A stretch of 32,463 nt of DNA from Escherichia coli (GTDB lineage Bacteria; Pseudomonadota; Gammaproteobacteria; Enterobacterales; Enterobacteriaceae): the NCBI RefSeq assembly GCF_003334385.1, contig NZ_QOWN01000051.1. One strand, 5' to 3'. Under the pieces are notes generated by a model that was given only the letters and a program-made list of their open reading frames with translations, was not told the origin of the DNA and did not search any database. How positions within the stretch are numbered: the first letter of the stretch is position 1; each line of letters begins with the position of its first letter. A program made the position numbers and the translations under genes. Below are positions 6,512 to 7,600 of this stretch, piece by piece.

Positions 6512-7600
6512 TCAACCACCTGCTTTCATTACCCATTCAGAGATAAATTTATTACCCGGTACTGGCGGAGAGTACAAATAGCCCTGCAAAAAGTGAACGC
6601 CTTTACCGATCATTAAATCCGCCTGCTCCTGGGTTTCTACCCCTTCCGCCACGATACTCAGACCAGGCTTACGCGCTAGTTCGACAATATTGTCCACAAT
6701 ATGACCGGAGATTTCGTCGACACTCGCCATTTGCACAAATGACTTATCGATCTTAATAAAATCGACCGGGAACGCCTGTAAGTAACGATAGGTCGCATAA
6801 CCCGTACCAAAGTCATCCAGCGCAAAGGTAATGTTGTGCTGATGAAGGCTGTCAAATATCGCTCTGGCTTCTGGCGTTACCGGAATAGGGTTACGTTCCG
6901 TTAGCTCGAGAACCAGCTTGATTTTATCGTTACCTAATTTATTAACCAGGTTCAGACACTCTTTTTCAAATCCCGCTGCCAAAAAACAACCCGCCGAGAC
7001 GTTGATGCCAATATGGAAATTGTCCGGCAGCAAATGTTTTACCGGCATCAGAATATCCGCAGTCTGTTTCATCAGTTGGCGGGTCATTATGACAATAAGA
7101 CCGAATGACTCCGCCAGAGGAATAAACTGATCCGGTGGGATAATTCCCGTTTGTGGATGTTCCCAGCGGACAAGCACCTCACAGCCCGTCAGTACCCCAG
7201 TCTGCGCGCAGAAAACCGGTTGGATCCACGGTTTGAATTCGTGGTTTTCCAACGCCAGACTGATGGCTTCAGGCGTGACGATATGGTGATAGTGATTATC
7301 ATTAATATATCTGTGACTATTACTCCCCGTGGCGGATATGATCTCCGGATTGTACTGAAAGAAAATATCGCGCCAGAAAGTAATATCGCTCTGAATCCCC
7401 AGTTTCTCAAAGAGCTGTTTCTTTTGATGTGAAATTGTCTTTGCACTGCGATTTCTGTACTGTGATATTTCTGTTACAGACATTCCCTGCATCAGCAGCT
7501 TGAGTAGCAGTCGTTCTTTCTCGGATACGCTACCAGGCAATGACAAATGAACCGTTGTACCGAACTCTTGCAGAAAAACACGAAAATCACATGAATTCAT
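6512..7600 (-). CDS. pdeL: Cyclic-di-GMP phosphodiesterase with N-terminal LuxR-type HTH and C-terminal EAL domain
   Basis: EAL-domain motifs (ELTE, DDFGTGY, KIDKSFV) and N-terminal LuxR/FixJ-type HTH (LLKLLMQGMSVTEISQY...KTISHQKKQLFEKLG). I place the start at the third Met (MNSCDF...) giving 362 aa; the track ORF starts 2 codons earlier. Confidence 0.9.
   Translation of the reverse strand: MNSCDFRVFLQEFGTTVHLSLPGSVSEKERLLLKLLMQGMSVTEISQYRNRSAKTISHQKKQLFEKLGIQSDITFWRDIFFQYNPEIISATGSNSHRYINDNHYHHIVTPEAISLALENHEFKPWIQPVFCAQTGVLTGCEVLVRWEHPQTGIIPPDQFIPLAESFGLIVIMTRQLMKQTADILMPVKHLLPDNFHIGINVSAGCFLAAGFEKECLNLVNKLGNDKIKLVLELTERNPIPVTPEARAIFDSLHQHNITFALDDFGTGYATYRYLQAFPVDFIKIDKSFVQMASVDEISGHIVDNIVELARKPGLSIVAEGVETQEQADLMIGKGVHFLQGYLYSPPVPGNKFISEWVMKAGG

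Follow-up and report, generated by a model that had tools for sequence, protein, structure and literature searches.

The stretch of DNA analysed here, referred to throughout as the window, is 32,463 nucleotides long and comes from a contig of Escherichia coli. The gene that occupies positions 6512-7600 on the minus strand is identified, with a probability of about 0.93, as E. coli pdeL (formerly yahA), which encodes a DNA-binding regulator fused to a cyclic di-GMP (c-di-GMP)-degrading enzyme. The first-pass annotation had named the gene pdeL and given its limits without a strand, and the name is borne out by sequence comparison and by the RefSeq K-12 orthologue. The product matches PDB entry 7PK5 ('Cyclic di-GMP phosphodiesterase PdeL') with 360 of 361 aligned residues identical, a score of 825 bits and E=4e-248, far above chance level, and it also matches the YahA EAL-domain structures 4KIE and 4LJ3/4LYK, the sole mismatch being at position 166. 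The protein falls in the same 90% cluster as the RefSeq PdeL entries, and each characteristic of the PdeL/YahA orthologue group that was tested on the sequence was found, namely near-identity, synteny, a helix-turn-helix (HTH) with K60, the cis elements and the switch residues. A close match to a 61-nt pdeL coding segment is present in 5,144 of 5,426 complete E. coli genomes. The best NCBIfam hit, NF007839, describes a different c-di-GMP phosphodiesterase and reaches 217 bits against a curated cut-off of 461; a search of the NCBIfam library for a PdeL-specific model returned none, so the missed cut-off says nothing about the gene. This pdeL is an ordinary chromosomal copy of a gene that is already known, and the sole oddity of its protein is the substitution S166F.

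The coding sequence (6512..7600, minus strand) comprises 1089 nt, specifying 362 amino acids followed by a TGA stop, with the ATG at 7600-7598 and the TGA at 6514-6512, as supported by the list of open reading frames (ORFs), the PDB match and the RefSeq annotation of the K-12 orthologue. The ORF list gives a 364-codon frame on the minus strand, 7606..6512, with an in-frame GTG at 7606. The ATG at 7600 is favoured over this GTG because a Shine-Dalgarno-like AAAGG lies 9-13 nt 5' of the ATG and directly abuts the GTG, because K-12 pdeL is annotated in RefSeq with 362 amino acids and because the published residue numbers (K60, S114, E141, L168, K283, D295 and S298) are reproduced only by the ATG start. 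Opposite-strand ORFs inside pdeL (6918-7130 and 7151-7432) and in the adjoining intergenic region (7920-8105) were taken, on the basis of the ORF list, to be mechanical, and an Rfam scan returned no RNA family in the pdeL region.

The gene order, betT-yahV-pdeL-yahB-yahC, is the same as in K-12 MG1655, and the ORF list gives flanking products of 677 amino acids for betT, 310 for yahB (LysR type) and 165 for yahC. Across 5,061 bp the window differs from MG1655 by five SNPs (99.9% identity). The K-12 protein is represented by 7PK5 at full length and by 4LJ3, 4LYK and 4KIE for the EAL domain; 4LYK and 7PK5 show the R-state tetramer and 4LJ3 the T state with c-di-GMP bound. In comparison with it the window copy has the same locus, the same neighbours and, bar one base, the same 874-bp control region. 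The differences in pdeL itself are S166F together with two synonymous changes, at 7196 and 6779, and upstream the GTG start of the small ORF yahV is gone. One more difference from MG1655 lies at 5792, within yahB.

Domains and functional residues

The first-pass annotation had described an N-terminal LuxR-type HTH and a C-terminal EAL domain, and both are recovered by Pfam. The GerE/LuxR-type HTH (PF00196, E=2.8e-7) covers residues 25-72, corresponding to 7385..7528 on the minus strand, and includes K60; this domain also matches the C-terminal domain of RcsB in the PDB. The EAL c-di-GMP phosphodiesterase domain (PF00563, E=4.7e-61) covers residues 112-346, or 6563..7267 on the minus strand, and aligns with model positions 3-236 of 236.

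The loss of EAL catalytic motifs, named at the outset as the sign of a degenerate, non-enzymatic domain, was not found. The catalytic, metal-binding and substrate-binding residues were checked against 140 aligned homologues, these being representatives that cover the catalytic core and were drawn from a search of 1.84 billion proteins. The set is present in its entirety: Q127, E141 and R145 (E141xLxR145, with an EVL motif), E164, N200, E232 and E235 (E232xxE235), D262-D263 (in DDFGTG), K283, E319 and Q339. None of these residues is changed in more than two of the 140 homologues, and E164 is invariant except for one Asp. A degenerate EAL domain was rejected on the completeness of this set. The residues defined by mutation in K-12 PdeL are likewise all kept, including K60, S114, L168, E235, Y268, T270, D295 and S298.

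PdeL has relatives in function and in fold. The other E. coli 'trigger' phosphodiesterase, PdeR (YciR), is likewise an active EAL enzyme in which the binding and turnover of c-di-GMP act as a sensor that controls a macromolecular target (PMC5052742). PdeR has a PAS-GGDEF-EAL architecture and acts on proteins, DgcM and MlrA, whereas PdeL binds DNA directly through its LuxR-type HTH. The EAL fold and the catalytic set are shared with Pseudomonas aeruginosa PA3825-EAL (4Y8E; 216 bits, E=9e-63 in the PDB search), MucR and DosP, which are without the LuxR HTH and for which no transcription-factor role is described. Collinearity with PdeL over both domains was seen in just a few of the database representatives (P0020, P0023, P0024 and P0075, with 37-46% identity).

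The control region upstream of pdeL

The betT-pdeL intergenic region, which contains the pdeL regulatory region and leader, extends over 7601..8474 relative to the minus-strand gene. It is 874 bp long, and its GC content of 33.8% is lower than those of pdeL (45.7%) and of the whole window (48.6%). The first-pass annotation had remarked on a very long, AT-rich upstream region as the unusual aspect of the locus. The length and composition hold, but the region is not unusual for pdeL: 873 of the 874 bases are identical to K-12 MG1655, the one exception being at 8167, and it carries the published binding sites. An anomalous upstream region was rejected on this identity, and the long AT-rich spacer is the known, H-NS-silenced control region of pdeL.

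The published probes for the PdeL binding sites are also kept in the window. The probe that contains the Cra box and the Cra-dependent PdeL box (oligo 4695, 'CB CDB') matches 8071..8100 on the minus strand, the match being exact once a clearly superfluous T in the oligo sequence, as read by machine from the PDF, is deleted. Within it the Cra box (CB), GCTGAATGGATTCAGT, lies at 8084..8099 on the minus strand with two mismatches to the Cra consensus palindrome, and we infer that the Cra-dependent box (CDB) occupies about 8074-8086. [quoted passage not shown] According to the published supplement this probe consists of the CIB with 10 bp upstream and 33 bp downstream (bioRxiv 10.1101/2021.10.01.462762), and subtraction of these flanks therefore places the CIB at 8299..8276 on the minus strand. 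A repeat finder independently recovered, as inverted repeat I4, a palindrome with exactly these limits, TTCAATAAG-N6-CTTATTTAA.

The fragment used for RNA polymerase recruitment corresponds to 8100..7922, its ends being set by primers 4695 and 4283. Inside it lies a candidate pdeL promoter at 7934..7961 on the minus strand, the best sigma-70-like match (TTGATC-16-TATAAT, 10/12); the scan found promoter-like sites no more often than by chance (4 found against 4.8 expected from shuffled sequence). No pdeL transcription start was found in the accessible PdeL literature. The distal edge of the intergenic region holds a terminator-like hairpin after betT (8435..8456, minus strand).

The small ORF yahV, which has 24 codons in the RefSeq annotation of K-12, corresponds to 8095..8169 on the minus strand and ends in a stop codon that shares sequence with the Cra box upstream of pdeL. 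The SNP at 8167 changes its GTG start to GTA, and a 35-mer with this variant is found in only 7 of the 5,426 complete E. coli genomes.

The window copy has no insertion in the pdeL upstream region, and insertions do occur there in other genomes. Each of four complete E. coli genomes has IS1 at a site of its own, downstream of the Cra/PdeL boxes but ahead of the pdeL start codon, and both orientations occur; in window-equivalent positions the sites are 7757-7765 (L008), 7686-7695 (L009), 7790-7798 (L010) and 7896-7904 (L013). The four insertions arose independently, and each cuts pdeL off from the promoter region through which it is autoregulated. The literature notes an insertion hotspot close to pdeL (bioRxiv 10.1101/527788). 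In strain CP61_Sichuan (L012) an element of the IS3 family lies 3 bp from the CIB palindrome (window-equivalent 8269-8273) and splits the CIB from the Cra/CDB site, and in strain GD33 (L011) an IS903B is located just past the pdeL stop codon (window-equivalent 6502-6510). A close match to the leader segment 7721-7801 is present in only 3,756 of the 5,426 complete genomes, whereas the pdeL coding segment has one in 5,144. Some 1,400 genomes with pdeL therefore have a diverged, replaced or interrupted leader.

The PdeL switch

The first-pass annotation had called PdeL a c-di-GMP-sensing autoregulator, in agreement with the literature. PdeL combines phosphodiesterase activity with the role of a c-di-GMP-sensing transcription factor, which activates its own gene together with Cra against silencing by H-NS; the hydrolysis of c-di-GMP, the autoregulation and the tetramers were shown for the K-12 allele (PMC5052742; bioRxiv 10.1101/2021.10.01.462762). 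Hengge classed the protein as a 'trigger phosphodiesterase' (PMC5052742). PdeL binds the CDB, next to the Cra box, with a Kd of 76 nM and the distal CIB palindrome with a Kd of 573 nM, competing with H-NS at the latter, and K60 is required for DNA binding, as seen from the K60A phenotype (bioRxiv 10.1101/2021.10.01.462762). Residue S298 is involved in dimerisation, E235, T270 and D295 in the switch between the R and T states, and S114 and L168 in tetramerisation; the tetramer interface pairs helix alpha1 with alpha2', has S114 and L168 as its central residues and is described as consisting of salt bridges and hydrophobic residues (bioRxiv 10.1101/2021.10.01.462762). In the same work, R-state dimers form tetramers when c-di-GMP is lacking, and c-di-GMP favours the closed T-state dimer, takes the tetramers apart and lowers catalysis. 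For the wild-type tetramer the Kd is about 9 uM; progress curves of c-di-GMP hydrolysis by the wild type are biphasic, and the R-lock form has a kcat of 0.30 per second. The circuit is bistable, giving bimodal c-di-GMP levels and subpopulations that are shielded from phage N4 (PMC8669472).

For the copy in the window, the identity, domains, catalytic and switch residues, synteny and cis elements come from the present analysis, whilst the mechanism is drawn from the literature or by inference. On this basis the LuxR/GerE HTH would bind at two PdeL boxes that precede the gene, the CDB beside the Cra box and the CIB about 200 bp further upstream, and the C-terminal EAL domain would bind and hydrolyse c-di-GMP. 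At low c-di-GMP, relaxed (R) dimers are expected to pair into tetramers through contacts between helices alpha1 and alpha2', and these tetramers would occupy both boxes, oppose H-NS silencing of the AT-rich region and, with Cra, recruit RNA polymerase. At high c-di-GMP the EAL dimer would close (T state) and the tetramer fall apart, with a drop in both transcription and catalysis, so that the predicted outcome is a bistable switch.

The S166F allele

Codon 166 (7103..7105, minus strand) reads TTC, for Phe; in K-12 it is TCC, for Ser, the residue also seen in the crystal structures. The change, C to T on the coding strand at 7104, had gone unmentioned in the earlier annotation. It is absent from the 5,426 complete E. 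coli genomes: the exact 61-mer occurs in none of the 5,144 matching genomes (none at ≥99% identity), and a 35-mer centred on the SNP, for which every 28-nt seed must contain the variant base, had no hit in the complete genomes. S166F was on these grounds rejected as a common polymorphism.

The exact S166F protein is encoded on at least 24 contigs, from independent draft assemblies and an SRA run; examples are GCA_003334385.1, GCA_002190145.1, GCA_050373655.1, GCA_052269565.1, GCA_023689265.1 and SRR7748388. Five other S166F loci were fetched, one of which (L006, which has indels) was left out of the base-by-base comparison. The linked synonymous variant at 7196 is common to four of the five (L002, L003, L004 and L007). 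At 6779 and 8167 three of these (L002, L003 and L007) have a base other than that of the window, and a dense tract of recombination is present 2-7 kb away in two S166F loci. A sequencing error was rejected on the number of contigs, the shared variant at 7196 and the divergence seen either at 6779 and 8167 or as the recombination tract. S166F is a real, inherited allele of some age on one shared local haplotype, and it is not obviously of recurrent origin.

Residue 166 is located two positions after the near-invariant E164 and two before L168 (AES-S/F-GLIV), where helix alpha2, the helix of the dimer-dimer contact, begins. Amongst 155 diverse EAL homologues the equivalent position is Ser in 95, Thr in 25 and Asn in 12, making 132 of 155 (85%); these are typical helix N-cap residues. 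Phe, Tyr, Trp or His is found there in seven homologues, with Phe in two. In six of the seven, the two with Phe among them, the catalytic set is complete (as in P0156, with 'AERFGLI'). A Phe at this position is therefore compatible with a canonical EAL domain, and the S166F enzyme is most likely functional. The points against full wild-type function are the prevalence of S, T or N at the position, the neighbouring E164 and L168, and the absence of the allele from the complete genomes. S166F is a rare, non-conservative change at a conserved, non-catalytic position beside the surface through which PdeL forms tetramers.

S166F may affect how stable the tetramer is or how the protein responds to c-di-GMP. 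A more speculative reading, held to be less likely than not, is that S166F is a naturally circulating allele that would retune the bistable switch of PdeL, either through the stability of the alpha1-alpha2' contact or through the geometry of E164.

In one alternative, the substitution would weaken the dimer-dimer contact between alpha1 and alpha2', so that basal phosphodiesterase activity is kept whilst cooperative autoactivation is lost, leaving cells in a single high-c-di-GMP state. The precedent is L168R, which abolishes tetramers, autoactivation, pdeL transcription at physiological levels and bimodality (bioRxiv 10.1101/2021.10.01.462762). Residue 166 precedes L168 in the same helix, S114 and L168 are central to the interface, and the dominance of small polar residues at position 166 points the same way. 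However, S166 is not named among the interface residues that were tested, and the allele has lasted long enough for more SNPs and a recombination tract in its vicinity to accumulate, a history that would fit a neutral change. A loss of cooperativity of this kind is considered unlikely.

In a second alternative, S166F would displace E164 or the N-terminal end of helix alpha2 and so lower c-di-GMP binding or catalysis, giving a functionally degenerate EAL protein that still activates transcription. Such behaviour resembles that of E141A, which, like K283R, de-represses pdeL transcription (bioRxiv 10.1101/2021.10.01.462762), and the near-invariance of E164 and the preference for S, T or N at 166 are in keeping with it. 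It is nonetheless improbable, given that all catalytic residues are intact in this PdeL and that homologues with F, Y, W or H at the position retain a complete catalytic set.

In a third alternative, the Phe would enlarge the hydrophobic area of the dimer-dimer patch and stabilise the active R-state tetramer. The allele would then be hyperactive ('ON'), c-di-GMP would be low and the cells would be protected against phage N4. The interface does include hydrophobic residues, and activating alleles could be selected in nature: the constitutively active F206S protects against phage N4 (PMC8669472), and T270A and D295N restore motility at high c-di-GMP (bioRxiv 10.1101/2021.10.01.462762). The known activating substitutions, however, cluster at helices alpha5 and alpha6 and loop 6 rather than at alpha2, and S166F is rare, which together make a hyperactive allele very improbable.

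The gene itself teaches nothing new, PdeL being amongst the best-characterised of the c-di-GMP trigger enzymes and every one of its defining features being present here. What the window adds is a rare, inherited natural substitution near L168, and mutation of L168 is known to do away with the PdeL switch. If S166F does retune the switch, the balance between high- and low-c-di-GMP subpopulations in the lineage that carries it would shift, with consequences for biofilm formation, motility and sensitivity to phage N4. An effect on tetramerisation would offer a natural case of the tuning of a bistable second-messenger circuit, a modest and testable matter of specialist interest.

At the contig end, positions 1-160 of the window contain two tandem matches to the Rfam family naRNA4/CssrE, a REP325-type nucleoid-associated RNA, and the related loci L002, L003, L004 and L007 show eight positions that differ from the window within 13-129.
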